64,000 nt of DNA, taken from contig OY782781.1 in NCBI GenBank assembly GCA_963678315.1, forward strand, positions 2,123,845 to 2,187,844, in the 5' to 3' direction. The number at the start of each line of letters is the position of its first letter. The first letter of the stretch is position 1. Source of the DNA: Candidatus Cloacimonadales bacterium. Its GTDB lineage: Bacteria; Cloacimonadota; Cloacimonadia; Cloacimonadales; JAFGVF01. The notes beneath the pieces were generated by a model. The model saw nothing but the letters and a program-made list of their open reading frames with translations, was not told where the DNA came from and ran no database searches. Both the position numbers and the translations under genes were made by a program. This document shows, one piece after another, positions 9,751 to 38,709 of the stretch.

Positions 9751-11652
9751 TTAATCAGTTAATAGAAGATACTCATCTTCCAGAATAAGTAGCTTATTAG
9801 TAGCTTTATCAATATCATTATCAAGCTCTTCAATAGTTAGCTTTAGTTCTTTTACAAGTTCATGGTCACTATAAGTAGCAGGGTCAGCAAAAAGCTCTTC
9901 AGCTTCTATTTTCTGATTTTCTAAGTCTTCTAAAAGCTCTTCAGTTTCTTCAATCTCATTCATTAGTTTATCTAAAATATAAGGATTAACTTTTTTCTTT
10001 TTATCTTTTGGCTTATTAGTATTCTTAGGCTCTTCATCTTGATTACTGTTAGTTACTTTATCAGAAGTTAAGAAATCATCAAGTACTTTTGACCAATCTT
10101 CTTTTAGGTCTTTAATCTCTTGATCTTTGAACATCCAAAATTTACTAGCTAATTTAGATATAAAGTTTCTGTCATGAGAAACAAATATAATTGTACCATC
10201 ATAAGACTGTAAGGAATCAATTAAATCATCAACCATTAATATATCTAAGTGATTAGTAGGTTCATCAAGAAGTAAAACATTAGGGTTTTGATGGATGAGC
10301 ACAGCTAGATTGAGTCTTGCTTTCTCTCCCCCACTCATGTACTCAATTGCTTTATCAACCTCATCACCTCTAAAACCATACTTTGCTAAATACTTGAGCA
10401 CATAACCAATTGGTTGACCAGGAGCCATAGCCCATATTGTTTCTTTTGGAGTAGAATTTAAATCTAAAGAACTATGGAACTGATCGAAATACCCAAACTG
10501 GATGTTAGCACCAATTTTACATGTACCAGATAATAACTGTTGTTCTTGCATAAGAATTTTAAGCAAAGTTGTTTTGCCACATCCATTCCTTCCAATTATT
10601 GCTATTCTGTCTTGGTAACCAGCTCTAAGATTAATATTTTCAGCTAATATCTTAGAAGAAAAGCCAATTAAGCCTTTCTCAATAGTATAAACATCATTAC
10701 CTGTTCTTTCAGAAGTAGAAAACTTTAAATTCAATCTTTTATCATGAGAAACATCATCAATAATATCTAATTTCTCTAATTGCTTTAACCTAGATCTTGC
10801 TTGAATAGTCTTTTGAGAACCAATGTTCTTTCTAACAAAGTCCATTGTCTTTTCAATGTGCTTCTGTTGTTGTCTGAATGCTTTTGCTTGTTGTTCTTTC
10901 AACAAAGCAGAAGCTTCTTCATAAAAGCTATAATTTCCAGTAAATGATTTAAGCTGTTTATTATCTATTTCAAAGATTTTATTAACAGTTTTATCTAGAA
11001 AGTACTTATCGTGTGAGATAATAATGTAAGGTTTTCCAAGATTAAGGAGGTATCCTTCTAACCAGCTAATCATGTGTAAATCTAGGTGGTTAGTAGGTTC
11101 ATCGAGTAGCAAGACACTATATTCAGACAATAGTATTTTTGCTAGTTCAATTCTTGTGCGTTCTCCCCCACTAAAGTTATTTATTTTTTGATCCCAGACC
11201 TCTTCTTTGAATCCTAAAGAAGTCAAGATTAGTTTGATAGAAGTCTCATAATCGTAACCACCAATGGTAAAAAACTCTTCTTCGAGCTTTGATAGCAGAT
11301 TCAAATTACTTTCACAAGGATCATTTGCCAATTGTTCTCTAACCTTTTGAAGTTGATCTCTCTTATCAAGAAAATCACTTCTACTTACAACAACAGATTC
11401 GTATAGAGTATCTTCAGGATTAAGTGTGTCAACCTGTTTAAGATATGCTATTTTAGTCTTAGATGCAAAACCAACATTACCTTCTGATGGCTCTATCTCT
11501 TGATTAATAACCTTAAGAAGTGTTGTCTTTCCACAACCGTTTCGACCAATTAATCCAATTCGACTATCTAAATCTAGATTAAAGGAAATCTTGTTGAAGA
11601 GGGTTAATCCTCCAAATGACATTCCGACATTCTGAACTTGTATAAGACTCAA
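9751..11652 (-). CDS. ABC-F family ATPase (translation-associated type, no TM domain)
   Basis: 633 aa. Two ABC cassettes (GRNGCGKTTLLK twice; SGGE signatures; LLLDEPTNHLD twice), an inter-domain linker, and a Lys/Glu-rich C-terminal coiled coil. Confidence 0.9.
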   Translation of the reverse strand: MSLIQVQNVGMSFGGLTLFNKISFNLDLDSRIGLIGRNGCGKTTLLKVINQEIEPSEGNVGFASKTKIAYLKQVDTLNPEDTLYESVVVSRSDFLDKRDQLQKVREQLANDPCESNLNLLSKLEEEFFTIGGYDYETSIKLILTSLGFKEEVWDQKINNFSGGERTRIELAKILLSEYSVLLLDEPTNHLDLHMISWLEGYLLNLGKPYIIISHDKYFLDKTVNKIFEIDNKQLKSFTGNYSFYEEASALLKEQQAKAFRQQQKHIEKTMDFVRKNIGSQKTIQARSRLKQLEKLDIIDDVSHDKRLNLKFSTSERTGNDVYTIEKGLIGFSSKILAENINLRAGYQDRIAIIGRNGCGKTTLLKILMQEQQLLSGTCKIGANIQFGYFDQFHSSLDLNSTPKETIWAMAPGQPIGYVLKYLAKYGFRGDEVDKAIEYMSGGEKARLNLAVLIHQNPNVLLLDEPTNHLDILMVDDLIDSLQSYDGTIIFVSHDRNFISKLASKFWMFKDQEIKDLKEDWSKVLDDFLTSDKVTNSNQDEEPKNTNKPKDKKKKVNPYILDKLMNEIEETEELLEDLENQKIEAEELFADPATYSDHELVKELKLTIEELDNDIDKATNKLLILEDEYLLLTD

Positions 11653-11660
11653 TGATTCTC

Positions 11661-12914
11661 CTAATTCGAGTGAATAAGTTGGCCCTTTTTGTATACGGAT
11701 ACAACATTATTTGAACCAAAGTGATAAGGTAGATATTGGTAAGAAGGCATATCTGTTATTAAGAAATCTGCATATTTACCAACTTCAATAGATCCTACTT
11801 TATGACCAATTCCAATAGCATAAGCAGCATTTATTGTAGAAGCAACTATAGCTTCAGCAGGTGTCATTTTCATCTGTAAGCAAGCTAAAGTAATTACAAA
11901 TTGCATATTATCACAATTGCATGAACCTGGGTTAAAGTCTGTCGCTAATGCTACAGAAACACCAGAATCTATCATTAAACGAGCATCAGCATACTTAGAC
12001 ATACCAAGTGAGAAAATAGTTCCTGGTAGTAAAGTAGCAATAACATCAGAATTAGCTAATGCTTTTATGCCATGTTCTTTAGTCGCGCCTAAATGGTCAG
12101 CTGATGTACAAGCCATTTCTACAGCAAGCTCTGCTCCACCAATTGCTTCAATTTCATCAGCATGAATTTTCAACTTAAATCCATAATCTTTAGCACATTG
12201 CATAACTTCTCTTGACTCTTCAATAGAGTAAACATGGCCTTCAGTAAAGATATCACAATAAGTAGCTAAACCTGATTTAGCAACTTCAGGTATCATTTCA
12301 TTTTTCAAGATATCAATATAAGCACGATGATTATCTTTGTATTCAGTTGGAAACTCATGAGCTCCCATGAAAGTGGAAATAATATGTATTTTATTGTCTT
12401 TATTCAATCTATCAATAACTCTTAATTGTTTTAGCTCAGCTTCAGTTTCTAAACCATAACCAGATTTAGCTTCCAATGAAGTAGTTCCGCAAGAAATCAT
12501 TTTTTCTATTCTTTTTTGAGCTAATTCATATAATGTATCTTCATCAGCATCTTTAGTTGTAGTCAATGTAGATCTGATTCCTCCACCTGCTTGTGAAATT
12601 TCTACATAACTCTTTCCTTGCAATCTCATTTCAAACTCATTCTCACGAGTATGAACGAATATCGGGTGTGTGTGCGGGTCAACAAAACCAGGCATTACAA
12701 CTTTGTCATTAGCGTCAATAATCTCTTCAGCTTGATAGTTATCAAGTATATTATCTGTGGTGTCAACAGCGATTATTACACCATCATTTATAGCAAAACC
12801 ACCATCTTCAATAATATGAAGATTGCCCATCTCACTTCCTTTTCTAGCCCTAGCTTCACCTTTCATAGTTAAAAGTTGGTTGGCATTTATAACTATAGTC
12901 TCGACCTTTTGCAT
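11661..12914 (-). CDS. hutI: Imidazolonepropionase (amidohydrolase superfamily)
   Basis: 417 aa. PGFVDPHTHP metal site, KSGYGL and KIHADE segments typical of HutI. No hutH or hutU in the window. Confidence 0.8.
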   Translation of the reverse strand: MQKVETIVINANQLLTMKGEARARKGSEMGNLHIIEDGGFAINDGVIIAVDTTDNILDNYQAEEIIDANDKVVMPGFVDPHTHPIFVHTRENEFEMRLQGKSYVEISQAGGGIRSTLTTTKDADEDTLYELAQKRIEKMISCGTTSLEAKSGYGLETEAELKQLRVIDRLNKDNKIHIISTFMGAHEFPTEYKDNHRAYIDILKNEMIPEVAKSGLATYCDIFTEGHVYSIEESREVMQCAKDYGFKLKIHADEIEAIGGAELAVEMACTSADHLGATKEHGIKALANSDVIATLLPGTIFSLGMSKYADARLMIDSGVSVALATDFNPGSCNCDNMQFVITLACLQMKMTPAEAIVASTINAAYAIGIGHKVGSIEVGKYADFLITDMPSYQYLPYHFGSNNVVSVYKKGQLIHSN

Positions 12915-14310: not shown

Positions 14311-14454
14311 TTCAATTACTCCTTTATCTAATTTATGCCATTAAAACAACTATAAATATGTTGGCAACAATTTTCTTATTATAGAATAGCAACTGACTTC
14401 GTCATTACTTGCCTCATTGAAAAAAAGCCACTTTTTCAAGGGGGCAAGTAAGGA

Positions 14455-14600
14455 TGTAGTAGTGAGGAATTAGTAGTGGTGGAGTGTAAGCATCCAAAGG
14501 TCCAATAGCAAGCAAGATGCTTGCGCACAATATAATGATGGAGTGTAAGCATCCACCGATAGGTTGAACAAAGTTCATGCTTACGCAAAGACCATGCTTT
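14455..14600. repeat. Solo, rearranged member of the 134-bp structured repeat family (see 28692-29612)
   Basis: Contains GGAGTGTAAGCATCCA twice. Also has hairpin GCAAGCA-aga-TGCTTGC and hairpin GTAAGCAT-N24-ATGCTTAC with the loop core TAGGTTGAAC. These are the same modules as the tandem units, in a different order. Confidence 0.75.
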
Positions 14601-14875
14601 ATCCAGTAAGGACATTTTAGTCCCGAAGGAACGATATAGATTTTATCTCCGCTCATAAAAATAGAACACTGTTTAGACAGATGAAATGAGTTAGGAGTGA
14701 AGTTAGCAGTGATGAAGTAAACAAAAAGTTATAATTTCTCTGCAAAAATAGATGATTGAGATATTTTAATTGACAGTCTTACTCCTGCCTTCTATTATAG
14801 ATAATACGTAATAAAATATACTATATGAGTTAGAAGTTAGCTAATTTATACTTATAAATAAGAGGAGAATTATTA

Positions 14876-23743: not shown

Positions 23744-26608
23744 CTACTTCCTACTAGTAATTTTCTTATTTGTGAAGATTTCATTGTCAATTAAAGCTCC
23801 CTTATCAACCTCTTCAAGACTTAAACCATTCCATTTAAGAATTACCCATGAATACTGAGTAAAGTTGAATATATTAGAAGGTGAGCCTATACTATTTTCA
23901 TCATTCCATAGCCAGAAAGATACAGACTTATCTCTAGCAAAAGGACTTTCCATATTCATAATTAGAGAATATTCATCTTCATTATAGACTTTTCCTTTTA
24001 CTTCGAAGAAACCTTCATCGAAAGCAAAACCTGGTATCATTCTTTCTGCAAAGAGAGGGAACAATGGGTTTTGAGTGTATTCTCCCATAAAGAGTAAGGA
24101 TTCCTTTCTCCAGTCAACACTGTTGATTGCTTCGATTGGAAACATAGAAAGCTCAACACCATTTTTCTTTAAAGTATTCGGTACAGAGTATATATCTTCA
24201 AAGTTGTCAGCTGATTTTTGAACTAGGCACAGAGGCTTATCTAAAAATGTTCTTCTTAATCTATAATTGTTCTCATAGGCAGATAATCTACGATACAGCT
24301 TATACTCTGGATCTAAAATTACCTCATCAGCTTCAAAAGCAAATTCTAAACTAGTTATTTCTTTATTTATTCTGTGCTGAGCAACAATAAAATTCTCTTC
24401 GTTGATAAGTTTAACATCAAGTACAAAATCTTTTAATTTCTTATTGTTTTGGATAATCTCTACTCTTGTCATACCATCTTTAACTACTGCACTTTTTACT
24501 AGCACATTTATAGGATAAATATCATCAATAAAGTTATTTAAATTAGGTAATTTAGTTAAGGAAGTAAGCTTAGTAAAGAACTCACGTCCTGATAAAGAGT
24601 TATTGTTATCAAGAATTGTATTTAAAGCATTGAAGAAGCCATATTCTCCAGCTTGATCTTTAATATAGTATAAGAGCATAGCTCCAACTTTAAAGCCCAT
24701 TATAGCGTCGAATTTACTTGTAGGAAGTTCAAAGTTGTATAAATCATAAAACTCATCAAGTGGCATAGCTGTAATATCTTCTAAAGCATCTTTTCTCCAC
24801 ATGGGAGCTTCTGGAGCACGATTCTTTTCTAACCAATAATAATTAGAAATAAAGTTTGCTAATATTTCTGTCCAATTACCATCACTCTTATCCCATTGAC
24901 ATCTTGAATTAATCCACATTCTCGCTAAATCATGACCTAGAACACCTGGAGATGTAAATATCTCATTGCTTTTAAATACAGAATTATCAACTAGCAATAC
25001 ATTTTCATAATATTTAAAATCTCTATCTGCTGATTGCACAATGCTTAAATTATCAAAAGCAAAGGGACCAAAATAGCTAGTATAATCGTTAAAATATTGT
25101 TCTACAGCATATTCATATTCATCAATAAGAGCGAATTCATTCTCATAACAGAAGATAGTTACTTTAGTATCTCCATACTGGAATGACTTTGATATATATA
25201 AATCACCTACTATTTTTAAGCTATTAACTTTGTTACTTGGTTTCCATGTATAATAAATTGTATTGTTCTTGAAAGGAGAGATAGTTAAATTACCAGGAGC
25301 AATAAATTTATACTTATTTGGTGCAATAGCTGACACTTCAAAGTTGCTTTTTTCCCCTAATTTAATAAATGGATGCCATTGATATTCATCTAAAGCAATA
25401 TATGTTATTTTGTTTTTAAGGAGAGGGTATTTATAAATATAAACAAGGGTAATATTCTTTACATCCATATTGATTAATAATTTGTTATATTCATCATTTA
25501 AATCAACTATGTCAAACTCAACTTCTTTCTTGTCTACAAGAACTTTAGCCACTGCTATTTCTTTTGATAGGTAGATTGGTGAATCTCCAATATTATCTGA
25601 AAATGTGATTTCATCTGAAGCGTTAAGCAATCCTACATTAGGTTCTGGAATGAAAGATATTTTATGTTTTAAAATAGACAAATCTTTCATATCTTCACCT
25701 TTATCGTCAGAAAATTCTTCAATAAAGAGACTGTCCTGTTTAATTACTATAGTGAAGTCTCCATGGCCTTTATAGGAAGTATGCCATTGGATGTCTTGAT
25801 TATAATCTATATAAATGGGACTAATAATAGTCTTTTTTAAGAGAGGATTAAGATATTGAAGCTTTTCTGGAATACCGTAGCCAAATCTAGAATGGAATGA
25901 ACCATTTATATGAAAGATCTTGCTATTGTGGTGATACTCAAGAAAATCAAATATACTTTCGGCCATAGTATCATCTTTCAGACAGTTTGCCTGAAACATT
26001 CTTTCTATTAGCAATTCTCTAGTCTGTGAATCAAACTCTAGCGTATCCTGGCTCATAAGTTCAGATATAAAATTGCTTTTGTAAAGGTAGTTTATTGCAT
26101 TAGTTTCTCTAGCAAGCAAATTGGATTCATAATCAGGTAAATTTTTAACAGATTCTAAGCCTTCTTTAATTACTTTGGCAACATACTTTCTTGGTAAACT
26201 TGTAGCTATAACTTTGATACTATCATTTTTAGCTATATTTACTAGAGGAGAATAATCTGTAAGATAATTCTTCCATAATCTACTATTTGAGTCTAATTGT
26301 TCAAATGAATATTCACCATATATAAACTTATCTAAGGCATCTTGAGAATCACGTTCAAACATTTCCATAGCTAGTACAAAAGTAGAATCTATCTCTAATA
26401 CTCTTTTAAATGTTTCTTGTTCAATATAATGCTGTAATGAATCACTATGGTTTTCACCGAAGAATACAACATCACTATAAACAATTCTACTAGCGAGTTC
26501 ATCAATAGTAATTTCATTACCCGTTGAGGAATCAAACATTTTGTATTCTTTACTAAATAAGCATAATACCGACATTAAAACAGCAAGTAACACTAAAAAT
26601 CTTTTCAT
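23744..26608 (-). CDS. Secreted ChaN/DUF399 (haem-binding, Tiki-superfamily)-like domain fused to an M1-peptidase-like domain with degenerate zinc motif
   Basis: 954 aa with a signal peptide. N-terminal VVFFGENHSD ... CLKDDTMAESI is paralogous to ORF 26621-27523. The C-terminal GHDLARMW ... WTEILANF aligns to M1 HELAHQW ... WLNEGFA, but as HDxxR instead of HExxH. Confidence 0.6.
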   Translation of the reverse strand: MKRFLVLLAVLMSVLCLFSKEYKMFDSSTGNEITIDELASRIVYSDVVFFGENHSDSLQHYIEQETFKRVLEIDSTFVLAMEMFERDSQDALDKFIYGEYSFEQLDSNSRLWKNYLTDYSPLVNIAKNDSIKVIATSLPRKYVAKVIKEGLESVKNLPDYESNLLARETNAINYLYKSNFISELMSQDTLEFDSQTRELLIERMFQANCLKDDTMAESIFDFLEYHHNSKIFHINGSFHSRFGYGIPEKLQYLNPLLKKTIISPIYIDYNQDIQWHTSYKGHGDFTIVIKQDSLFIEEFSDDKGEDMKDLSILKHKISFIPEPNVGLLNASDEITFSDNIGDSPIYLSKEIAVAKVLVDKKEVEFDIVDLNDEYNKLLINMDVKNITLVYIYKYPLLKNKITYIALDEYQWHPFIKLGEKSNFEVSAIAPNKYKFIAPGNLTISPFKNNTIYYTWKPSNKVNSLKIVGDLYISKSFQYGDTKVTIFCYENEFALIDEYEYAVEQYFNDYTSYFGPFAFDNLSIVQSADRDFKYYENVLLVDNSVFKSNEIFTSPGVLGHDLARMWINSRCQWDKSDGNWTEILANFISNYYWLEKNRAPEAPMWRKDALEDITAMPLDEFYDLYNFELPTSKFDAIMGFKVGAMLLYYIKDQAGEYGFFNALNTILDNNNSLSGREFFTKLTSLTKLPNLNNFIDDIYPINVLVKSAVVKDGMTRVEIIQNNKKLKDFVLDVKLINEENFIVAQHRINKEITSLEFAFEADEVILDPEYKLYRRLSAYENNYRLRRTFLDKPLCLVQKSADNFEDIYSVPNTLKKNGVELSMFPIEAINSVDWRKESLLFMGEYTQNPLFPLFAERMIPGFAFDEGFFEVKGKVYNEDEYSLIMNMESPFARDKSVSFWLWNDENSIGSPSNIFNFTQYSWVILKWNGLSLEEVDKGALIDNEIFTNKKITSRK

Positions 26609-26620
26609 TTACTATTTCCC

Positions 26621-27523
26621 TTACTTCTTTTCTTCTTCTCTTTCTATTATAATGATAAAATCACCTAATGATTTATAGTCATCTTTCCAGATAAGTTCTT
26701 GACCTATCTCCATGGCAACTGGGGCAATTACAGCAACTTTCAAATGGTTGTTTAGCAGTTTTACTTTCTGAGCTGTTCCTAAGTGAGATGTAGAGTGAAA
26801 CTCTCCATTGATATGTAAAACTTTTGCCTTAGGATTTTCTGCTAAATATTCTACTATTGATTCAGCCATTGTATCATCTTTTAAACACTGAGCTTTGTAG
26901 AAATTCAATATCATTTGATCTTTCATTTTCATTCCATGAGTCTTCATTGATTGCATGGTTTCATAGAAATTTACTTTATATTCATCATCTAATACTACAA
27001 GTTTATTAGCAACATACTTCTTTTCATCTTCAGAGATTCTATCCAATGCTTCTTGTCCTTGCATTGCTATAGAAGAAGCATATCTTCTTGGAACGTTTGC
27101 TGCTATCACATCATGTTTATTCTTGATTGCTATCTGTAGAAGTGGTTCATAATCTTCTTTGTGATTAGGCCATAATCTTGCTTTTTCAGAGAAAGTTTTA
27201 TAATCAATTTTACCAGTAATATATTCATCTAGTTCTTGTTGATTGTCTCTCTCAAACATTTCCATAGACAAAGCTAGCTTGTCACAATTCTTACTAAAAG
27301 ATGAATAAATTTCTTCTTCTAAGCTATGCAATAAAACATCATCATGATATTCACCAAAAAAGATAACATCATAATCTTCAAATTGCTCAACAAGAGACTC
27401 AACATCTTCTATCTGTTTACCAGTTTTTGAATCATATATTCTATATTCTAAGCTGTTTACCGAACAGATAGACAATAAAATTACCATTACTACAATTATA
27501 ATATTTGCATTCATATTATTCAC
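26621..27523 (-). CDS. ChaN/DUF399 family secreted protein
   Basis: 300 aa with a signal peptide. VIFFGEYHDD, ALSMEMFERDNQ, CLKDDTMAESI motifs are shared with the N-terminus of ORF 23744-26608. Confidence 0.7.
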   Translation of the reverse strand: MNNMNANIIIVVMVILLSICSVNSLEYRIYDSKTGKQIEDVESLVEQFEDYDVIFFGEYHDDVLLHSLEEEIYSSFSKNCDKLALSMEMFERDNQQELDEYITGKIDYKTFSEKARLWPNHKEDYEPLLQIAIKNKHDVIAANVPRRYASSIAMQGQEALDRISEDEKKYVANKLVVLDDEYKVNFYETMQSMKTHGMKMKDQMILNFYKAQCLKDDTMAESIVEYLAENPKAKVLHINGEFHSTSHLGTAQKVKLLNNHLKVAVIAPVAMEIGQELIWKDDYKSLGDFIIIIEREEEKK

Positions 27524-28274: not shown

Positions 28275-28583
28275 CTAAGTCAGCATCTTTTCATTAACTG
28301 ATTGTACTTTGCCTTTGATTCTATTTTGCTTAGAAGCCCTAAAATCTATTTTTATAGTTATTCCTATTCTTTCATATTCTGCACCGAATTTGTAGAATAT
28401 TCTTCTAACAAGGTCCATAACATGGTCATATTTACCTTCTAGTACAGAACCCATTGGTGTTAAAAGGTGCTGAACTTTTTCATCAGCATTTATAACATCA
28501 AGAACTTGAGCTACAAATGGAGATAGGCTAGTTCCTATATCATAAGTTACTACTACTAATTCACATATTATATTTGTATTCAT
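28275..28583 (-). CDS. MTH1187/YkoF-like (UPF0045) thiamine-binding family protein
   Basis: I prefer the internal ATG at 28583 (MNTNIICELVV...; RBS AAGGAAAAG 5-13 nt upstream) over the track start at 28634. LSPFVAQVLDVI..TPMGSVLEGKYDHVMDLV..ITIKIDFR fits the family pattern. Confidence 0.75.
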   Translation of the reverse strand: MNTNIICELVVVTYDIGTSLSPFVAQVLDVINADEKVQHLLTPMGSVLEGKYDHVMDLVRRIFYKFGAEYERIGITIKIDFRASKQNRIKGKVQSVNEKMLT

Positions 28584-28691
28584 TATACTTTTCCTTTTAT
28601 TAATTATAAGGCATTGGTCAAGGTCCTCCTGCATTAAAAGGCTTCTTTATGCAGGGGACGGTTAAGATCTAATAAGCTGATCTTACTAGAA

Positions 28692-29612
28692 GTATTCATC
28701 ACTTAGGTTGAACTCTGTTGATGCTTACGCTAAAGGCTACATCCAAATACAAGCAAGATGCTTGTACACCTAGAAAACTTTCGTAGCCAAGGATGGCTAC
28801 AATCCACACAATCTGATGGAGTGTAAGCATCCACCGTTTAGGTTGAACTCTGTTCATGTTTACGTAAAAGGCTAAACCCAAATAAGCAAGATGCTTATGC
28901 ACCCAGAAAACCTTCGTAGCCAAGGATGGCTACAATCCATTTAATCTGATGGAGTGTAAGCATCCACCGTTTAGGTTGAACTCTGTTCATGTTTACGCTA
29001 AAGGCTACATCCAAATATAAGCAAGATGCTTGTACACCTAGAAAACTTTCGTAGCCAAGGATGGCTACAATCCACACAATCTGATGGAGTGTAAGCATCC
29101 ACCGTTTAGGTTGAACTCTGTTCATGCTTACGCTAAAGGCTACATCCAAATACAAGCAAGATGCTTGCAACCCAAAAGACAATCGTAGCCAAGGATGGCT
29201 ACAATCCATTTAATCTGATGGAGTGTAAGCATCCACCGCTTAGGTTGAACTCTGTTCATGCTTACGCTAAAGGCTACATCCAAATACAAGCAAGATGCTT
29301 GCAACCCAAAAGACAATCGTAGCCAAGGATGGCTACAATCCATTTAATCTGATGGAGTGTAAGCATCCACCGTTTAGCTTGAACTCTGTTCATGCTTACG
29401 CAAAAGGCTACATCCAAATACAAGCAAGATGCTTATGCACCCAGAAAACCTTCGTAGCCAAGGATGGCTACAATCCATTTAATCTGATGGAGTGTAAGCA
29501 TCCACCGCTTAGGTTGAACTCTGTTCATGCTTACGCTAAAGGCTAAATCCAAATACAAGCAAGATGCTTGCAACCCAAAAGACAATCGTAGCCAAGGATG
29601 GCTACAATCCAT
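28692..29612. repeat. Tandem array of ~7 copies of a 134/135-bp non-coding unit containing three conserved hairpins
   Basis: Unit starts (TCTGATGGAG) at 28811, 28945, 29080, 29214, 29348 and 29483, giving periods 134, 135, 134, 134, 135, plus a degenerate first unit from ~28692. Hairpins: GTAAGCAT-N25-ATGCTTAC, CAAGCA-aga-TGCTTG, GTAGCC-aaggat-GGCTAC. The period is not a multiple of 3. Confidence 0.95.
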
Positions 29613-29644
29613 GAAAACAACTTACCAAGCCAAGAATGAGTATA

Positions 29645-29669
29645 CCAGAGTGCGGTTTAGACACTCTGG
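29645..29669 (-). terminator. Hairpin downstream of the oxidoreductase operon (possible terminator)
   Basis: 8-bp stem CCAGAGTG / CACTCTGG, 26 nt after the stop at 29695. On the minus strand it is followed by TATACTCATTCTT, which is only moderately T-rich. Confidence 0.45.
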
Positions 29670-29694
29670 CATTTAACTCTGTATTTAAATATTA

Positions 29695-30846
29695 TTATTT
29701 GAAAGCTTCCATACCTGAGAAGTCTCTGTATAAGCTGAAGCTTTGTAGTATCTTTTCATCATCAGCTGTAGTCTTGTTCATAGCGATTCTAGCTAGAAGT
29801 TCACCTAAACCAGGTCCTAACATGAAACCTTGTCCGCACATACCGACAGCATTAATATAGTTTTTAATTTCTTTGGTTCTGCCAACAATTGGGAAACCAT
29901 CAGGAGTCATAGGATATTGTCCTCTCCAAGTTCTTCTTAGTTTTAAGAATTTAAGTCTTGGGTAAATGCCTAACATTCTTTTTGTTACAAGTGGCAAGAA
30001 TTCTGAAGTTGATAGATTATTCACTCCCACTATTGGAGGATCTGGTGTAATACAGAAGACTACTTGTCCTTCATGGTTTTGGTAGAAGTAATAATTTGCA
30101 GAACCTGGAGCTTTACGCATGTCAATAACCATAGGTTCAAAGAATCTTTGAACAGGTTCAGTAATGCCAGCTTCATGATTATCAGGGAAAACAGGAAGAT
30201 CTAAGTCAATCATTTGACCAAGTTCTCTGGCATTGTTACCTGAAGCATTAATTAACTCATCACATTCATAAGCATCTTTATCGGTAGTGACTTGTTTGAT
30301 TAAATTACCTTCTCTCACAATATCAATTACTTTCTCATTAAAATGGAATTCAGCACCATTCTCTTCTGCTTTGAAATGGAAAGCAGACATAGCTAAAAGA
30401 GGAGAACACGATCCATCTTCCGGACTAAAAGTAGAACCTTTAAGTCCATCCATATTGATACCAGGAACAAGTTCATTATATCTTTCAGGGCTTACCCATT
30501 CGATATTTAATCCCATTTCTTGAAGAGATTTAACCATGTTTTGAAGTTTTTCAGCATCTTGGTCATTCCATGCAGGATATGAGTATCCATTGGATCTCCA
30601 ACCTATATCAAAGTTGTGTTTTTCTTTCCAAGTAGAAAAAATCTCAATTGAACGCTGACAAACAGATAGTTTACCATAATCTGAATGAGTAGCTCTTACG
30701 CCACCAATAGCTTTTTTATTATTAGCTTGTCCTGGACCAGACATTTCATCTAAAACTAGAACCTTCTTACCTTCTTCAGCTAAAAACATAGCAGTAGGAA
30801 CACCCACTGAACCAGCACCAATTATAATTACATCATATCTTTTCAT
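29695..30846 (-). CDS. FAD-dependent oxidoreductase, sarcosine-oxidase-beta / L-proline-dehydrogenase-beta-like (DAO family)
   Basis: Start moved to MKRYDVIIIGAGSVGVP (ATG 30846; RBS AAGGAG overlapping the upstream stop). GxGxxG dinucleotide fold at the N-terminus. DAO-family length (~383 aa). Confidence 0.8.
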   Translation of the reverse strand: MKRYDVIIIGAGSVGVPTAMFLAEEGKKVLVLDEMSGPGQANNKKAIGGVRATHSDYGKLSVCQRSIEIFSTWKEKHNFDIGWRSNGYSYPAWNDQDAEKLQNMVKSLQEMGLNIEWVSPERYNELVPGINMDGLKGSTFSPEDGSCSPLLAMSAFHFKAEENGAEFHFNEKVIDIVREGNLIKQVTTDKDAYECDELINASGNNARELGQMIDLDLPVFPDNHEAGITEPVQRFFEPMVIDMRKAPGSANYYFYQNHEGQVVFCITPDPPIVGVNNLSTSEFLPLVTKRMLGIYPRLKFLKLRRTWRGQYPMTPDGFPIVGRTKEIKNYINAVGMCGQGFMLGPGLGELLARIAMNKTTADDEKILQSFSLYRDFSGMEAFK

Positions 30847-30850
30847 AATG

Positions 30851-32926
30851 CTACTCCTTGTCCTTTCCGGCTGCAAATACTTCTAGTTGTGCTTCAACGA
30901 AAACAGGTCTTTTAGTATTTGGTACAACATGGTCAGTTGGAACACCCTCTTGACGCATGATTTGTTTAATCATAACTTCACAAGTTTTTGCACCACAAGG
31001 GCCCATTCCTGCTCTGGTGATAGCTTTCAATTGATTAAGGTCATATATTCCTTTCTTGATAAGATCACGAACTTCTTTGACAGTTACCCTTTCACATAAA
31101 CAAACCATTCCTTCATCAGATAGGTCTTCAACTATGGCATTGTCTAGAGCTTTGGTTATCTCTAAATCTTGTATTCTAAAAGAAGCTACCTTTTTAGCAA
31201 TCTCTCTATTGGCTTGAACTTTAATTAATTGAGTTCTTTGTTTTGCAAAAGATTGAACTTTTACTACTGGGAATTGACCAAACTCATTACCGTTAATGTC
31301 ATTTAATTTAACTAAAGCACCTTCTTTAATTTCTATGTTTCCTACTTCATAAGGAAGAGTGATAATAGGTTTTTCTTTATCCTTACGGTAATCAACAAGT
31401 GTTATTGCTAGACCTGGACAGATAAGAACGCACTTTCCACAGCCAATACAGTCACTAGTATATCTTGGAGTTCCCATAATACCATCACCGTCTATCTTGA
31501 TAGCGTTAACTGGACAAACAGTTGTACATGGGTTACATGGGATTTCTTGTAAACAATGAATTACAGGGAATATTCCTTCTTCTATATCAGGAGTGTTATA
31601 ATCTTTGATTTTGCCAGGATGTGATTTTAAAATATTAGCTTTATCATACCAGTCCTGAGGAACATCATCAACATTAGCTCCCATAATCTTACATATCTTC
31701 AAACCAGCAATTTTACCATTAAACATTGCAGAAGAAGCTTCAGCTATTTCAAGAGCATCTCCAGCTGCCATAACAGGTAGACCTGCTTCCTGAGCTTCTT
31801 GAGTAAACTCACTTAAAGAATCTAAACCAACAGCCATAAGAATAGTATCACACTCGAAACTCTTTTCAGTACCCTTGATAGCTTGGAATTTATCATCAAC
31901 TTCTATTATAGTAATCCCTTCAACAGTCTCATCACCATTAGCACTTGCAATACTATGAGAAGTGTAAATAGGAACACCTAATCTCTTTAGTTTATCAGCA
32001 TGAACCTTATAACCACCGCATTGTTTTGCAGCTTCAACAAGTCCAACAACATTGATGCCAGCCTGTAAAGCATGGTAACCTGCAATTAGTCCAACATTAC
32101 CACCACCAACAATAAATAACTTTTCGGTAGGTTTAACAAAATCTCTGTTAACTAAAGTCTGAAAAGCACCTGCACCATAAATACCAGCTAAAGTATTACC
32201 ATTGAAACGTAAGAACTTCTCTCTAGCTCCAGCTGCATTTAACACAAATTTAGGACTAACTAATTTATAAACGCCATCCTTTAAAATACCAACCTTCTTA
32301 TCGCTAAATACATATAATACTGTGGAATTTACCCATACCTCAATAGAATCCATTGCCATAACTTCATCAGCTAGGATTTGTCCAATATCATTTCCTCTAG
32401 TACCAGCTCTTGAATCAGCTTGTGAACCGAAGAATTTATGGGTTTGTAAAACTAATTTACCACCTAATTTATCTTTATCATCAATGATTAATGCCTTGAT
32501 ACCCTCTTTGCCCATTTCTATTCCAGCAGAAAGACCAGCAGGTCCACCACCGATAATTAAGACATCAGTTGTTAATTCTTCAATATTAGCTACACTTATA
32601 GTATCATCTGTTTCAGGTAAGCTAGGTAAGCCTTCTGCACTTTCAACAATCATGTTTTCCTTAACAGGTGTCATACATGATTTAACAGGTATACCGTTAG
32701 CTATTACTGTACATTTTGCACATTGTCCATTTGCACAGAATATACCTTGAGCAGTATTGTCTACATGATGATGACCAAAAGCTTTTACTCCATTTGCCAT
32801 TAAGGCTGAAGCAATCATTTCTCCCTTACGAGCTTTAAATAATTGTTTGTTCCAATAAAAATTGATGTACTCATTAGTTTCCGGAACATCTAGGACCGGA
32901 TGTTTTTTTATACGTTTTTCCATCAT
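30851..32926 (-). CDS. Multi-cluster flavoprotein alpha subunit: 2Fe-2S + FAD/NAD(P) pyridine-nucleotide-disulfide oxidoreductase + 2x[4Fe-4S] ferredoxin + BFD-like 2Fe-2S
   Basis: Start preferred at MMEKRIKKHP (32926; RBS GGGAGA). Motifs: CANGQCAKCTV..C (Fer2_4-like), DVLIIGGGPAGLSAG, LFIVGGGNVGLIAG, CNPCTTVCP and CIGCGKCVLICP, and C-terminal CLCERVT..GPCGAKTC (BFD-like). Confidence 0.8.
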   Translation of the reverse strand: MMEKRIKKHPVLDVPETNEYINFYWNKQLFKARKGEMIASALMANGVKAFGHHHVDNTAQGIFCANGQCAKCTVIANGIPVKSCMTPVKENMIVESAEGLPSLPETDDTISVANIEELTTDVLIIGGGPAGLSAGIEMGKEGIKALIIDDKDKLGGKLVLQTHKFFGSQADSRAGTRGNDIGQILADEVMAMDSIEVWVNSTVLYVFSDKKVGILKDGVYKLVSPKFVLNAAGAREKFLRFNGNTLAGIYGAGAFQTLVNRDFVKPTEKLFIVGGGNVGLIAGYHALQAGINVVGLVEAAKQCGGYKVHADKLKRLGVPIYTSHSIASANGDETVEGITIIEVDDKFQAIKGTEKSFECDTILMAVGLDSLSEFTQEAQEAGLPVMAAGDALEIAEASSAMFNGKIAGLKICKIMGANVDDVPQDWYDKANILKSHPGKIKDYNTPDIEEGIFPVIHCLQEIPCNPCTTVCPVNAIKIDGDGIMGTPRYTSDCIGCGKCVLICPGLAITLVDYRKDKEKPIITLPYEVGNIEIKEGALVKLNDINGNEFGQFPVVKVQSFAKQRTQLIKVQANREIAKKVASFRIQDLEITKALDNAIVEDLSDEGMVCLCERVTVKEVRDLIKKGIYDLNQLKAITRAGMGPCGAKTCEVMIKQIMRQEGVPTDHVVPNTKRPVFVEAQLEVFAAGKDKE

Positions 32927-34831: not shown

Positions 34832-35560
34832 TTAAATCACCCTAAACAAGAATACCATCTCACCTAAGATCCTGAAAGTCTCAAGTTCGTACTCTTCTAT
34901 TATTATTACATCAAAATCTGGATTTAAAGGTTTCAGGATAACCCTCTTCTTCTCATTATCGAATTGTAGCTTTTTAAGTGTCACTCCATCTGGAGTCTGA
35001 CAAGCACTAATCTTGCCATCAAGACAAGGAATATCCATACTCTCTTTGATTACGACTATATCCCCATGCATAATTTTAGGCTCCATACTCCTGCCATTAA
35101 TTTTGAGAGCAATATACTTATCCTGGCTGTCTGAAAGATATGCTTTAGGTATCTCAATATATTTTGATGGAGACTCATCATAACATTCTAATGGTTGACC
35201 TGCTGAAATCTCTCCATATATTGGGAGAGTAATATTTCTAGAATCGAATAGATTTAACTTATGTTTAAAAACAGAATTATTACCTGTTAACTCTTCAATG
35301 TTCTTTTTTTGACCTTCTCCATATAGATTGCCATCAGCATCAGCAACAAACATTCCACCTTTGCCAGTTAACAACCAATTTAAGTTCAAACCATAGCATT
35401 CATTTATTCTCGCCATGGCAGATGCCGAAGGTTTACTTGCTTTTTTTCTGTTCACCCAATCAGAAAGATTTCCTGGGGTTACCTCAATAGTTTTAGCAAA
35501 ATCGGATCGCTTTATGTCTAGTGCATTTACGAACATTAACAGCCTATCTTTTATGTCCAT
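34832..35560 (-). CDS. Prophage repressor: HTH (XRE-like) + S24 LexA-like autopeptidase
   Basis: Start preferred at MDIKDRLL (ATG 35560; RBS AGGAGA 5 nt upstream). HTH segment RSDFAKTIEVTPGNLSDWVNRKK. S24 Ser motif GRSMEP and Lys segment GVTLKKL. Confidence 0.88.
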   Translation of the reverse strand: MDIKDRLLMFVNALDIKRSDFAKTIEVTPGNLSDWVNRKKASKPSASAMARINECYGLNLNWLLTGKGGMFVADADGNLYGEGQKKNIEELTGNNSVFKHKLNLFDSRNITLPIYGEISAGQPLECYDESPSKYIEIPKAYLSDSQDKYIALKINGRSMEPKIMHGDIVVIKESMDIPCLDGKISACQTPDGVTLKKLQFDNEKKRVILKPLNPDFDVIIIEEYELETFRILGEMVFLFRVI

Positions 35561-35589
35561 TTCATCTCCTATGTTAAGCACAACTTAAT

Positions 35590-35660
35590 ATTCGCATGTG
35601 TGCATAGTTATGCGAATGACTGAATTCTTTCCTTGACTTCATTCGCATTTATATTATACT
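35590..35660. promoter_or_regulatory. Lysogeny-switch region: palindromic operator plus early promoter
   Basis: ATTCGCAT (35590-35597) -N12- ATGCGAAT (35610-35617). A third ATTCGCAT half-site (35641-35648) lies inside the 16-nt spacer of TTGACT (35633-35638) / TATACT (35655-35660), which faces the Ner-like gene. Confidence 0.65.
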
Positions 35661-35723
35661 AACTTTAAATATACATTCTTTGCAACATTGCGAACAGTGT
35701 CAATAAAAATTTAGGAGGTTCGG

Positions 35724-35966
35724 ATGAGATCACCGTACTATCCAGCTGAAATAAAGTCAGCTATGTCTCTTAAAAGCATTACTATTAGGGAAATGGCTGA
35801 ACAGCTTTTGGTCTCCAGGAGAACTATAGAATATTTTATTAATGAAGGTCGTAGACTAAGACAAGCACAGGTTTTCTTAGAATTACTACAGCCTGAGCTT
35901 CGCGAAATCAGTAAAATCTATCGCAAACACACTAACAAAGATATTATAAGCTCTGAAAAGAGATAG
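35724..35966 (+). CDS. Ner/Cro-like small HTH regulator
   Basis: 80 aa. HTH ITIREMAEQLLVSRRTIEYFIN. First gene of the early operon, divergent from the repressor. RBS AGGAGG. Confidence 0.75.
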   Translation: MRSPYYPAEIKSAMSLKSITIREMAEQLLVSRRTIEYFINEGRRLRQAQVFLELLQPELREISKIYRKHTNKDIISSEKR

Positions 35967-35968
35967 TT

Positions 35969-37987
35969 ATGAGATATAGAGAACTATCAATCGAAGAAAT
36001 ACAAAAATTATTTGTATTAAGTAAAGCAGCTGCATATCGAATGACTAAAGCACATGAATGGGATTTCATCAGCGAGACATTAAAGAAAGGTGGAAGAAAG
36101 AAACTATATTTAGTTCCTGCTGATGCAATACCTGAAGAAGAGGAGCTAGCTAGACTAGTTGAGAACTCTTCCCTACCTGATGATGTAGAGTCAGATTTAG
36201 TCGAGTTTGATAATCCAGTAAATGATTTTGTACCACAAATAGTATTTTCACAACATGAACTTTTAAGAGCTCAGTTAAAAGCTGAACTCTGTGAGAAAAT
36301 ATTATCTGAATATAAAAGACTAGGTGTTAAAAAGCATGCTGTTGATGAAGTGTTAGAAGTTTATAACTCAGGACTGTTATTACCAATATTATTCAAACTT
36401 GAAGGCTCTAGGACAGCACGTTCTATTCGTATGTGGCTTAAAGACTATGAAGATAATGGCAGAGACTATAAAGTTCTGATTCGTTTATCTAAAGCATCAA
36501 GTATTAAGAAAGCAACTCTTAAGGAACAGAACTTTTTACTGGGACTATTGTTAGATGCTAACAAAGTTAAGATTGGCACAGCTATTAGGAAGTTAAAGCA
36601 GTTTAGTAGACTTGGAGCTATTGAATCAGACACAAGTGGAAGAGCTCTTAGACGTTGGTGTGAAGAGTGGCGAGATAGTAACATACAACAGTGGAATATA
36701 CTTCGAATGGGAGAAAAATATTCTAAGGACAACTACATATTTAGCCTTACACGTTCAGATGAACTAAACGTAGGCGATGTATGGGTTGCTGATGGTCATC
36801 AACTAGCCTTTGATATTATTGATCCTGATTCAGGAAAGCCTAAACGTATGATGCTTTTACTATTTTTTGATTGGGCAAGTAGATATCCTGTTGGAGCTTC
36901 ACTTGCTAATACTGAAGACTCAGAGCATATCTTACTAGCATTAAGAAATGGTATCCTGCACTGGAATGGCAGACCTAAGTATGTCTATCTTGATAACGGT
37001 AGAGCTTTTAAATCTAAACTGTTCCATCAAAAATGGGATGAGCATAATCTTGAAGATGAATTCTGTGGAGTATTCCCAAGATTAGATATCAAAGCAGAAT
37101 TTGCTAAAGCCTATAATGCTAGAGCAAAGGTTGTTGAGAGATTCTTTAGAACATTCCAAGAAGATTTTGAACGCTCTATGAATACCTTTAGAGGTGCCAG
37201 TATAGCAGATAAACCTGCCTTCTTAATGAGAAACGAGAAGTGGATAAAAAAGCTCAAAAAACGTGAGCCTGTAACTATTGAAGAAGCCAAGAGTATGATG
37301 TCATTCTATTTTCAAGAGATGTATGGAAAAACACCCCATGGTGGACTTGCAGGTAAAACTCCTCTGGAAGTATTTAGAGCTAGTGAAGTACCTGAAGAGA
37401 GAAAGATTGAAGACTCTGAACTTAACTTCTTAATGTTGAAGATTGAGCAAAGGAAAATTAGAGCCAATGGAGTTCAGCTCTTCAGTATAGTCTATTATCA
37501 TGATTATCTCATGAACTATGTTGGGCAAAAAGTTTCACTACGCTATGATTTAATGGATATGCGATCAGTTTTAGTCTATGATAAAAATGGCAAGATTATA
37601 TGCCAGGCTTTAGCTAAGAAGAGTGTTCATCCATTTGTTAAACTTGCTGAGAATGAACCTTTAGCTAAAAAGCAATGGCTTAAACAACTAGCTCATCAAA
37701 GAAGATTAGAGAAAGATGTTAAAGAAAAATCAGCTCTAATCCAAAAGCAAGTTCAAGAGGCAATTTCAGAGTTTGAACTACCAATTCTTAAAATAACAAA
37801 CAGTGCTTTTAATGATTCAAGCATGTTAACACATAAAGCTACTTTTAATCCAAGCATTGACCTTGATAAAATGGCAGAAAGTACAGCACATATAATTTCA
37901 ACATCACAACAACTACCTATTAAAACAATAGAAGAACGAGGACTTGAGAATCTCGATAAAATGCTTAAACAGATCGGTATAGATTAG
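35969..37987 (+). CDS. MuA-like DDE transposase
   Basis: 672 aa. rve-type core with D275 (VWVADGH), D342 (YLDNGRAF), E390 (KVVERFF); the 67/48 spacing is close to MuA D269/D336/E392. N-terminal HTH-like DNA-binding region. Confidence 0.9.
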   Translation: MRYRELSIEEIQKLFVLSKAAAYRMTKAHEWDFISETLKKGGRKKLYLVPADAIPEEEELARLVENSSLPDDVESDLVEFDNPVNDFVPQIVFSQHELLRAQLKAELCEKILSEYKRLGVKKHAVDEVLEVYNSGLLLPILFKLEGSRTARSIRMWLKDYEDNGRDYKVLIRLSKASSIKKATLKEQNFLLGLLLDANKVKIGTAIRKLKQFSRLGAIESDTSGRALRRWCEEWRDSNIQQWNILRMGEKYSKDNYIFSLTRSDELNVGDVWVADGHQLAFDIIDPDSGKPKRMMLLLFFDWASRYPVGASLANTEDSEHILLALRNGILHWNGRPKYVYLDNGRAFKSKLFHQKWDEHNLEDEFCGVFPRLDIKAEFAKAYNARAKVVERFFRTFQEDFERSMNTFRGASIADKPAFLMRNEKWIKKLKKREPVTIEEAKSMMSFYFQEMYGKTPHGGLAGKTPLEVFRASEVPEERKIEDSELNFLMLKIEQRKIRANGVQLFSIVYYHDYLMNYVGQKVSLRYDLMDMRSVLVYDKNGKIICQALAKKSVHPFVKLAENEPLAKKQWLKQLAHQRRLEKDVKEKSALIQKQVQEAISEFELPILKITNSAFNDSSMLTHKATFNPSIDLDKMAESTAHIISTSQQLPIKTIEERGLENLDKMLKQIGID

Positions 37988-37995
37988 GAGATCAC

Positions 37996-38709
37996 ATGCG
38001 AGAATATACCTTAGCAAAAACCAACAACGTAAAAAAAGGCTACGAGCTTTTTGATTATCTAATTAACAGACCTAAAACTGAAATGGTTGGTCTTGGACTT
38101 ATATATGGTCCTCCAGGACTTGGTAAAAGCAGATTTGCACGCCAGACAGCTATTCAAAACAATTATATATATTTCAGATTAGAAGCTACTATGACAGCTA
38201 AAAGCTTTGCTAGTAGGTTACTTGAACGAATATACTTCCATTTTGGAATGCCTAAGATTGGTATAAAAGGAAGTGCTAACCTAATTTTTCAAAAATGCTT
38301 AGATATTTTGAGAAATATTGATAATACAATCATAATTATAGATGAGATAGATTATGCCTTTAAAGACAAAAAGGTTTTAGGCAGTATTCGTGATATTGTA
38401 GATGAAACATTGTCTATCATTATCCTTGTAGGAATGTCAGATGCTAAAGAGAGTCTACTATCAGCTGATGCTCATTACTTTGATAGATGCAACTTCTTCT
38501 GCCAGTTTAAACCACTTGATGTTAAGGATTTAACACTTTTATGTAAAGTGGCATGCGAAGTTGAAGTAGATGATATAGTTATTAAACATATAGCAAAAAG
38601 AACTAAAGGTAATATCAGGAAGTTTATAAAATCACTCTACTCTTTAGAAAACTTAGCTGAAGCTCAAAATCTTACAATTATAAAACCACAACATTTAAGC
38701 TCATTGTAG
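37996..38709 (+). CDS. MuB-like AAA+ transposition ATPase
   Basis: 237 aa. Walker A GPPGLGKS, Walker B IIIIDEID. Lies immediately downstream of the transposase. Confidence 0.85.
   Translation: MREYTLAKTNNVKKGYELFDYLINRPKTEMVGLGLIYGPPGLGKSRFARQTAIQNNYIYFRLEATMTAKSFASRLLERIYFHFGMPKIGIKGSANLIFQKCLDILRNIDNTIIIIDEIDYAFKDKKVLGSIRDIVDETLSIIILVGMSDAKESLLSADAHYFDRCNFFCQFKPLDVKDLTLLCKVACEVEVDDIVIKHIAKRTKGNIRKFIKSLYSLENLAEAQNLTIIKPQHLSSL

Follow-up and report, generated by a model that had tools for sequence, protein, structure and literature searches.

We examined a tandem array in a 64,000-nt stretch of DNA (hereafter the window, meaning the whole stretch that was analysed) from a contig of about 2.99 Mb assigned to Candidatus Cloacimonadales bacterium. 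The array occupies the intergenic region between an oxidoreductase operon and a gene of the MTH1187 family, and consists of head-to-tail units of 134/135 nt. Each unit begins with a 50-nt palindromic element, here called H1, and continues with two shorter hairpins, H2 and H3. A first-pass annotation, made from the sequence alone, had described the repeated unit as a structured non-coding element. The features of the locus, and of a second locus carrying H1, are as follows.

14478..14592, plus strand: second H1 locus, comprising a degenerate H1-like copy (14478-14532) and a full H1 (14540-14589); from repeat search, covariance model R1 and depth
28275..28583, minus strand: MTH1187/thiamine-binding family gene (PF01910), downstream of the array
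28625..28665, no strand: hairpin CCTCCTGCAT-N14-ATGCAGGGG, between the array and the MTH1187-family gene
28681..29612, no strand: tandem array of head-to-tail 134/135-nt units; from Tandem Repeats Finder (TRF), unit parsing and alignment
28681-28811: unit 1, degenerate
28812-28944: unit 2, full
28945-29079: unit 3, full
29080-29213: unit 4, full
29214-29347: unit 5, full
29348-29482: unit 6, full
29483-29612: unit 7, full but 4 nt short
29086..29136, plus strand: copy of the H1 element; from folds, covariance model R1 and k-mer depth
29151..29169, plus strand: H2 hairpin of unit 4, UACAAGCA-AGA-UGCUUGCA; from alignment and depth in public run X1
29167..29184, plus strand: variable 17-19-nt A/C-rich segment of unit 4; from alignment, a scan for terminator-like sites and allele depths
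29185..29202, plus strand: H3 hairpin of unit 4, GUAGCC-AAGGAU-GGCUAC; from alignment
29642..29672, minus strand: terminator-like hairpin directly 3' of the oxidoreductase stop codon, forming one border of the array; kept in two other strains (L110 and L111)
29695..30876, minus strand: FAD-dependent oxidoreductase (DAO family), last gene of its operon, upstream of the array

Structure of the repeated unit

TRF reported one strong array, spanning 28703-29612 with a period of 135 and 6.8 copies (91% matches, score 1486). The tandem 134/135-nt structure proposed in the first-pass annotation was borne out, with unit boundaries within 1 nt of those it gave, and its placement of the array between the hairpin 3' of the oxidoreductase operon and the MTH1187-family gene also held. 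The six full units span 130-135 nt each. The G+C content of the array is 42%, compared with 32% for the window, and single units fold better than shuffled sequences on both strands (z about -2.7 to -3.9). The array is crossed by open reading frames (ORFs) on either strand, the longest of which had no candidate relatives in a protein search; the region is therefore non-coding, confirming the earlier view that these ORFs are artefacts. Rfam gave no match anywhere in the window at gathering score. At E<=10, searched over the array and the 14.5-kb locus, the best hits were chance matches to eukaryotic microRNA and small nucleolar RNA models, in agreement with the first-pass statement that the unit belongs to no recognised Rfam family.

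The three hairpins claimed for each unit are present in every full unit. H1 forms the first 50 nt and has a Y-shaped fold (GGAGTGTAAGCATCC...CATGCTTACGC), with arms GTAAGCAT...ATGCTTAC. Its outer stem of 9-10 bp, G(U)GUAAGCAU/AUGCUUAC(G)C, derives from a terminal inverted repeat, GTGTAAGCAT/ATGCTTACGC, that matches at 9/10 positions. In the array the stem encloses two mini-hairpins, ACC-N5-GGU and GAAC-N3-GUUC; across H1 copies the first of these varies as ACC-N4/5-GGT, alongside GAAC-N3-GTTC. The Y can form as DNA or as RNA, and does so about equally well on either strand. Besides the copy listed above, H1 starts at 28818, 28951, 29220, 29354 and 29489, and a degenerate copy lies at about 28679-28736.

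H2 reads CAAGCA-aga-TGCTTG and H3 reads GTAGCC-aaggat-GGCTAC. Since the arms of H2 resemble the outer stem of H1, H2 looks like a copy of H1 that has lost its interior. A 15-nt box, GGAGTGTAAGCATCC, occurs once per unit in direct orientation and three times inverted and degenerate (matching at 11-12 of 15 positions), at intervals of about 34 nt. The inverted copies sit in the 3' arms of H1, H2 and H3, and H2 and H3 would therefore appear to be decayed relatives of the H1 arms. Between successive H1 elements every unit has the same 84-nt segment, which occurs in three alleles. The three alleles that the first-pass annotation had assigned to the 17-19-nt segment were recovered by unit alignment, and recombinant alleles occur in other strains. 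Read on the minus strand, this segment supplies a U4 tract 3' of H3 in every allele, and the array accordingly has 14 terminator-like sites, compared with 1.4 expected. The first-pass annotation had also noted a second GGCTAC per unit as an alternative pairing partner for H3; it is indeed present, but reads GGCTAA or AGCTAC in 7/17 units across strains.

H1 is a high-copy dispersed repeat

The full H1 at 14540-14589 reads GGAGTGTAAGCATCCACCGATAGGTTGAACAAAGTTCATGCTTACGCAAA. Together with its degenerate neighbor it forms a doublet, with a period of about 59 nt and without H3, in a divergent intergenic region. We placed the Logan contigs of three public runs from different studies (X1, X2 and X5) on this locus. 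Summed k-mer depth over H1 was about 10,000-11,700 in X1 (flanks 40-44), about 1,000 in X2 (flanks 3.5-6.3) and about 450-490 in X5 (flanks about 4). By this measure of metagenomic depth, H1 is present at 110-260 times the level of single-copy flanks in the three runs. Between 86 and 94 contigs per run covered the 14.5-kb H1 in X1 and X2, and 44 did so in X5; roughly half of the H1 contigs continue into unlike flanks, and several contigs of 1-18 kb at the genome's own depth include the element. Variants within H1 are rare among the contigs.

The H1 part of the array itself showed the same excess of depth and the same foreign junctions. The rest of the unit (H2, the variable segment, H3 and the linker) was found at 7-14 times the flanks, in nine contigs that are all explained by the array, with H2 amounting to about 11 copies in all rather than hundreds. 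Other junctions between modules were also seen in contigs: H1-21 nt-H1, H1-11 or 14 nt-H3, and H3-10 nt-H3. Only about 20-50 distinct flanks correspond to the 110-260 copy-equivalents, which suggests that many H1 copies may themselves stand in arrays. As H1 is dispersed at high copy number, the unit is not the unique structured RNA envisaged in the first-pass annotation. Of the alternative raised there, a common dispersed MITE (transposable element of the miniature inverted-repeat type), the dispersal was found but no target-site duplication was evident.

Two further observations concern the surroundings of the 14.5-kb doublet. G/A/T-rich stretches with repeated AGTAGTG/GGAGTGA flank it at 14460-14480 and 14690-14720. 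A second dispersed hairpin, CTTACTTGCC..ATTGAAAAA-N7-TTTTTCAA..GGCAAGTAAG, lies at 14404-14460 and again at 16798-16844 of L118, another stretch from this species; its k-mer depth is about 35 times that of the flanks in X1, one copy in a sister strain lies between convergent genes, and in some contigs it stands inverted beside H1.

The array varies between strains and is absent from relatives

The same site is occupied by four units in strain L110 (on a 3.02-Mb contig) and by six in strain L111, both of the same species, as against seven in the window. The order of units in L110 and L111 is unlike that in the window, and some of their variable-segment alleles are recombinant or hybrid. Outside the species, a search with nhmmer detected the unit in none of 80 loci surrounding oxidoreductase orthologues in other genomes, most of them Cloacimonadota. 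In the closest species (about 81% protein identity) the same two genes are separated by about 90 nt containing one terminator-like hairpin, and in a marine relative by a 169-nt gap with a single hairpin. With regard to the position upstream of MTH1187-family orthologues, the array was absent from L028, L030 and L112-L117 as well as from all 80 loci.

The covariance model of H1 (R1) recovered every copy in this species and no copies in about 0.8 Mb of loci from roughly 45 other Cloacimonadota species. Exact-pattern scans found no matches among GTDB representative genomes and, in JGI metagenomes, first none and then two chance matches in unrelated high-GC or coding DNA. The 15-mer had 27 matches in IMG/VR; a single conserved stretch of phage coding sequence accounted for about a dozen, and the H1 hairpin accompanied none of the 27. 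Plasmids and phages searched with blastn yielded no match. Because scans outside the species yielded only chance matches, we take the repeat family to be lineage-specific; by comparison with the same site in related species, the array itself is a recent insertion. Its absence from the syntenic site of the nearest species, together with copy numbers of 4, 6 and 7 among strains, therefore points to the behavior of a repeat cluster and not to that of a conserved regulator or RNA gene.

Substitutions do not reveal a selected fold

The first-pass annotation had read the differences between units as structure-preserving substitutions. To the five helices of the unit we applied an alignment of 17 units from three strains (A1), in which 94% of cells pair. 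There were no double-sided pair changes in the 17 units, and the covariation score was 0.051, equal in effect to the shuffled mean of 0.050; the substitutions are not proof of a selected RNA fold, nor do they single out a strand. One-sided changes give G:U on the plus strand at 16:48, 10:54 and 72:90, and A:C on the plus strand, which is G:U on the minus, at 73:89, 74:88 and 107:124. With G:U and A:C changes mixed in this way, neither strand is clearly favored.

The individual changes described earlier were nonetheless all present in the sequence. The C>T change in the 3' arm of H1 in units 2 and 3 was confirmed, and the outer pair of H2 is C:G in units 1, 4, 5 and 7, T:A in unit 2, T:G in unit 3 and C:A in unit 6. 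The T:A pair of unit 2, however, comes with a 2-nt deletion, and the corresponding units of other strains have T:G. Among H1 copies at large, the array type and the 14.5-kb type have the stems in common but not the loops, and in one contig variant GCCC-TTTA-GGGC replaces ACCG-TTTA-GGTT, a compensatory change in an inner hairpin.

A probable BIME-like mosaic of a palindromic repeat

We consider it probable that the array is a mosaic, resembling the bacterial interspersed mosaic elements (BIMEs), of a lineage-specific palindromic repeat that is similar to repetitive extragenic palindromes (REPs) or to MITEs, and that it has at most local effects on neighboring transcripts. The proposal is built on the tandem structure, the dispersal of H1, the absence of the array in relatives, its polymorphism among strains and the absence of covariation. 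The building block would be the 50-nt H1, a 10-nt terminal inverted repeat around two mini-hairpins. One H1 and two short, degenerate-looking hairpins (H2 and H3) may have come together as a 134-nt basic module; in this species alone, the module would have entered the site that separates the oxidoreductase operon from the MTH1187-family gene, and would then have been amplified head to tail. Expansion, contraction and exchange of segments between units would have followed, either by unequal recombination or slippage or by a transposase-driven rolling circle as proposed for BIMEs. We postulate that the array is, in the main, selfish or neutral DNA whose function, if it has one, would be local. 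Such a local effect on the transcripts of neighboring genes is plausible: because the minus strand of each unit presents a stable hairpin followed by U4, transcripts reading through from the oxidoreductase operon would meet a series of structures resembling terminators or 3' stabilizers before they reached the MTH1187-family gene.

REPs and BIMEs offer the closest parallel. They are species-specific, number more than 100 copies per genome, form head-to-tail clusters of basic modules and differ greatly in cluster length between strains (PMC2817692). H1 shares with them a short imperfect palindrome in intergenic DNA at high copy number; clusters in which basic modules follow one another head to tail, palindromes occur in either orientation and the filler is cluster-specific; and restriction to one species with cluster length varying between strains (PMC2817692). 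Variant copies also stay palindromic, as they do in those families (PMC2817692; PMC3733652). Judged by metagenomic depth, H1 has more than 100 extragenic copies, and clusters of a 134-nt module, palindromes in both orientations and strain-dependent length (4, 6 and 7 units) were all found.

The differences are in the element itself and in its host. REPs are simple hairpins of 20-40 bp, whereas H1 is a 50-nt Y with two nested mini-hairpins, and it reads GGAGTG...ACGCAAA, with no GTAG/CGTC tag on either strand. GTAG does stand at the start of H3, where it belongs to the stem; H3 (18-26 nt) also fits the size of a REP, but at only about 14 times flank depth. REPs and BIMEs are elements of Proteobacteria mobilized by REP-associated tyrosine transposases (RAYTs; IS200/IS605-like Y1), whereas the host here is a member of the Cloacimonadota. 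Because H1 lacks the tag, is longer and is branched, and because the presence of a RAYT is not something that about 100 kb of the genome can decide, we do not regard membership of the REP/RAYT family proper as established. The array would better be described as a new family of small interspersed palindromic repeats that form mosaic tandem clusters.

The BOX elements of Streptococcus pneumoniae have the form boxA-boxB(n)-boxC, with one module tandemly repeated a variable number of times. They are small modular interspersed repeats without coding capacity that are strongly structured when transcribed (PMC3049150), and the present array resembles them in these respects and in the variable tandem number of one module. 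Unlike BOX, with which it has no sequence similarity, the array repeats a composite module of 134 nt, and no terminal modules equivalent to boxA or boxC were identified in it. With the Correia/NEMIS MITEs of Neisseria, H1 shares small size, a non-autonomous nature, terminal inverted repeats (here 9/10), intergenic location, tens to hundreds of copies and possible hairpins in transcripts. It is, however, much shorter than those elements, no target-site duplication or parent insertion sequence was seen in about 100 kb, and tandem amplification is atypical of MITEs.

Several points weigh against this interpretation. The copy number of H1 is a summed metagenomic k-mer depth, which related strains or species could inflate. 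Directly, only 2-3 loci were seen in about 100 kb (the window, L118, L119 and L121) of a genome of roughly 3 Mb, namely the array, the 14.5-kb doublet and one degenerate copy between convergent genes (954-1007 of L121), all three of them intergenic. No Y1 transposase appears in the gene tables of L110, L118, L119 and L121, a result that falls short of a genome-wide search for RAYTs, and a target-site duplication is apparent neither at 14540/14589 nor at the array ends. The missing REP tag and the length of H1 count here as well. A purely selfish element need not keep the GGA of the H3 loop, which is retained in all four loop forms, and the near-identity of H1 copies, with the compensatory replacement of ACC/GGT by GCCC/GGGC, would also fit a selected structure. 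Transcription weighs neither way, as no public run with the sequence is labeled RNA.

Alternative explanations

The array might instead be a periodic platform for protein binding at the level of DNA, affecting local supercoiling or domain structure. In this case a nucleoid-associated protein, gyrase or the element's own transposase could bind the GGAGTGTAAGCATCC boxes every ~34 bp. The four box copies per unit are regularly spaced, the pairing statistics have no strand preference, and BIMEs are known to bind IHF, gyrase and Pol I (PMC2817692). We nevertheless regard this explanation as unlikely: there is no known candidate for the protein that would bind, the boxes in inverted orientation are degenerate, and the idea overlaps with a BIME-like mosaic more than it competes with it.

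Less favored still is the proposal of a multi-copy regulatory RNA, long or processed, that is encoded on the plus strand, for example a sponge similar to CsrB or RsmZ. A sponge of this kind would offer, in each unit, the C-ANGGAU-G hexaloop of H3 and a second GGA (GAUGGAG), a total of 13-14 sites, and would end at 29642-29700, where a hairpin and a T-run lie. The consensus obtained for CsrA by systematic evolution of ligands by exponential enrichment is RUACARGGAUGU, and the RsmE-hcnA hairpin is another known target; the AAGGAU loop of H3, closed by C-G, has the form of such a high-affinity CsrA/RsmE site. The GGA is kept in the loop variants AAGGAC, AGGGAC and GGGGAU from other strains or runs. 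On the plus strand, most of the one-sided changes can be accommodated as G:U and every unit has U:G at pair 11:53, a plus-strand hairpin with a T-rich tail (T8 in L110) lies downstream, and a 10/12 promoter-like match occurs on the plus strand at 28560-28589. Yet promoter-like matches as a class are not enriched (8, compared with 4.9 expected), covariation is absent, and the public runs with the sequence include none labeled RNA. A CsrA motif was found in none of the loci scanned, although this is a weak test. The array is missing from the nearest species, its copy number is unstable, and the larger part of the conserved sequence of the unit is a dispersed repeat. CsrB, RsmY and RsmZ do share with the array repeated hairpins with GGA loops, including the C-ANGGAU-G form of H3, but they are conserved single-copy genes of Gammaproteobacteria with defined promoters and terminators, whereas the array is confined to one species and is mostly dispersed repeat. 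We therefore consider a regulatory RNA of this kind quite improbable.

A broader version, to which we assign only a slim chance, supposes that H1 is kept near-identical in about 100-250 copies as a functional nucleic-acid module, whether a recognition or processing signal in RNA or a small fold that is catalytic or binds protein. Expression of arrays like the present one would then be followed by cleavage to unit-length RNAs. In trans, their H3 GGA loop and variable A/C-rich segment would serve as a protein sponge or as seed regions.

It is very unlikely that the array is a cis-regulatory leader of the MTH1187-family gene made of serial riboswitch or attenuator units. Here GUAGCC would pair with either of two GGCUAC copies and so toggle the minus-strand terminator formed by H3 and U4. 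The terminator-like sites described above are in keeping with such a switch, as are the alternative stem partner in each unit and the location of the downstream gene on the same (minus) strand. The array does not accompany the orthologous genes of the sampled Cloacimonadota, however, among them those of the four nearest relatives, and strains differ in unit number (4 to 7). As noted above, 7/17 units have a changed alternative GGCTAC; no Rfam aptamer was found, and the putative sensor, H1, is a dispersed repeat that occurs in unrelated contexts.

An assembly artefact, in which a repeat had been collapsed or expanded, was a concern of the first-pass annotation and has a negligible probability: although the short-read unitigs of X1 end within the array, three independent assemblies contain it, two of which are contigs of about 3 Mb, and k-mer depths in X1, an independent run, agree with about seven copies, the variable segment summing to about 306 over single-copy flanks of 44x (7x) and the allele depths of 138:100:68 lying close to the 3:2:2 of the window.

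Other readings were rejected outright. A hammerhead ribozyme, suggested by CUGAUGG near the start of the unit, lacks the GAAA core and an Rfam match, and membership of any Rfam ribozyme, riboswitch or small RNA family was ruled out by the lack of scores at gathering threshold. A CRISPR array is incompatible with inter-H1 segments that are the same 84 nt in three alleles, and there are no cas genes within 10 kb. Known type III antitoxin repeats have a period of 34-45 nt, compared with 134 nt here, and the neighbors are a DAO oxidoreductase and a PF01910 protein, so a type III toxin-antitoxin RNA was dismissed as well. Integron attC sites, LexA boxes and DnaA boxes were excluded on architecture.

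Neighboring genes and other features

Two hairpins, at 29642-29672 and 28625-28665, flank the array, and the position of the latter matches that of the single inter-gene hairpin of related species. The MTH1187-family gene probably starts at the ATG at 28583 and not at 28634, to judge from its orthologues and the database protein, which begin MNTNIICE; the 119-aa ORF call would then be too long. With this start, the 28625-28665 hairpin would be followed by about 40 nt of 5' region.

The same hairpin belongs to a third family, CTCCTGCA-N14-TGCAGGAG, with copies at 2573-2610, 28625-28665 and 1343-1382 of L121. These sites lie between convergent genes or just upstream of the MTH1187-family gene, and the 3' arm overlaps GGAGG; the family is probably a terminator-type repeat.

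Two neighboring lipoprotein genes of the ChaN/Cofac_haem_bdg family (PF04187), of 954 and 300 aa, lie at 23744-27523, downstream of the MTH1187 and Impact_N genes, an arrangement kept in a sister strain. A Mu-like transposable prophage begins at 34832-38000 and continues onward: an S24/CI-type repressor (34832-35581, minus strand) is followed by a small Ner-like ORF, a MuA-like transposase (35969-37987) and a TniB/MuB-like ATPase. The L110 copy of the transposase has rve and Mu-transpos_C domains. Elsewhere in the chromosome of the same species, positions 1-9619 of L119 contain a complete-looking bacteriophage exclusion (BREX) locus with BrxA, BrxB, BrxC/PglY, the PglX methyltransferase and PglZ.

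Implications

Small palindromic repeats and their mosaics (REP/BIME, BOX and Correia elements) have been documented mainly in Proteobacteria and Firmicutes. The array would add a clear example from an uncultured phylum of the FCB (Fibrobacteres-Chlorobi-Bacteroidetes) group, with an unusual, Y-shaped 50-nt unit and copy-number variation between strains. The repeat family breaks short-read assemblies of digester organisms and can be mistaken for structured noncoding RNA genes, while array size (4, 6 or 7 units) provides a ready strain marker. A long-standing question would be opened only if the element proves to be expressed and processed; should H1 turn out to be a functional module of the kind considered above, it would represent a new class of multi-copy RNA system in Cloacimonadota.

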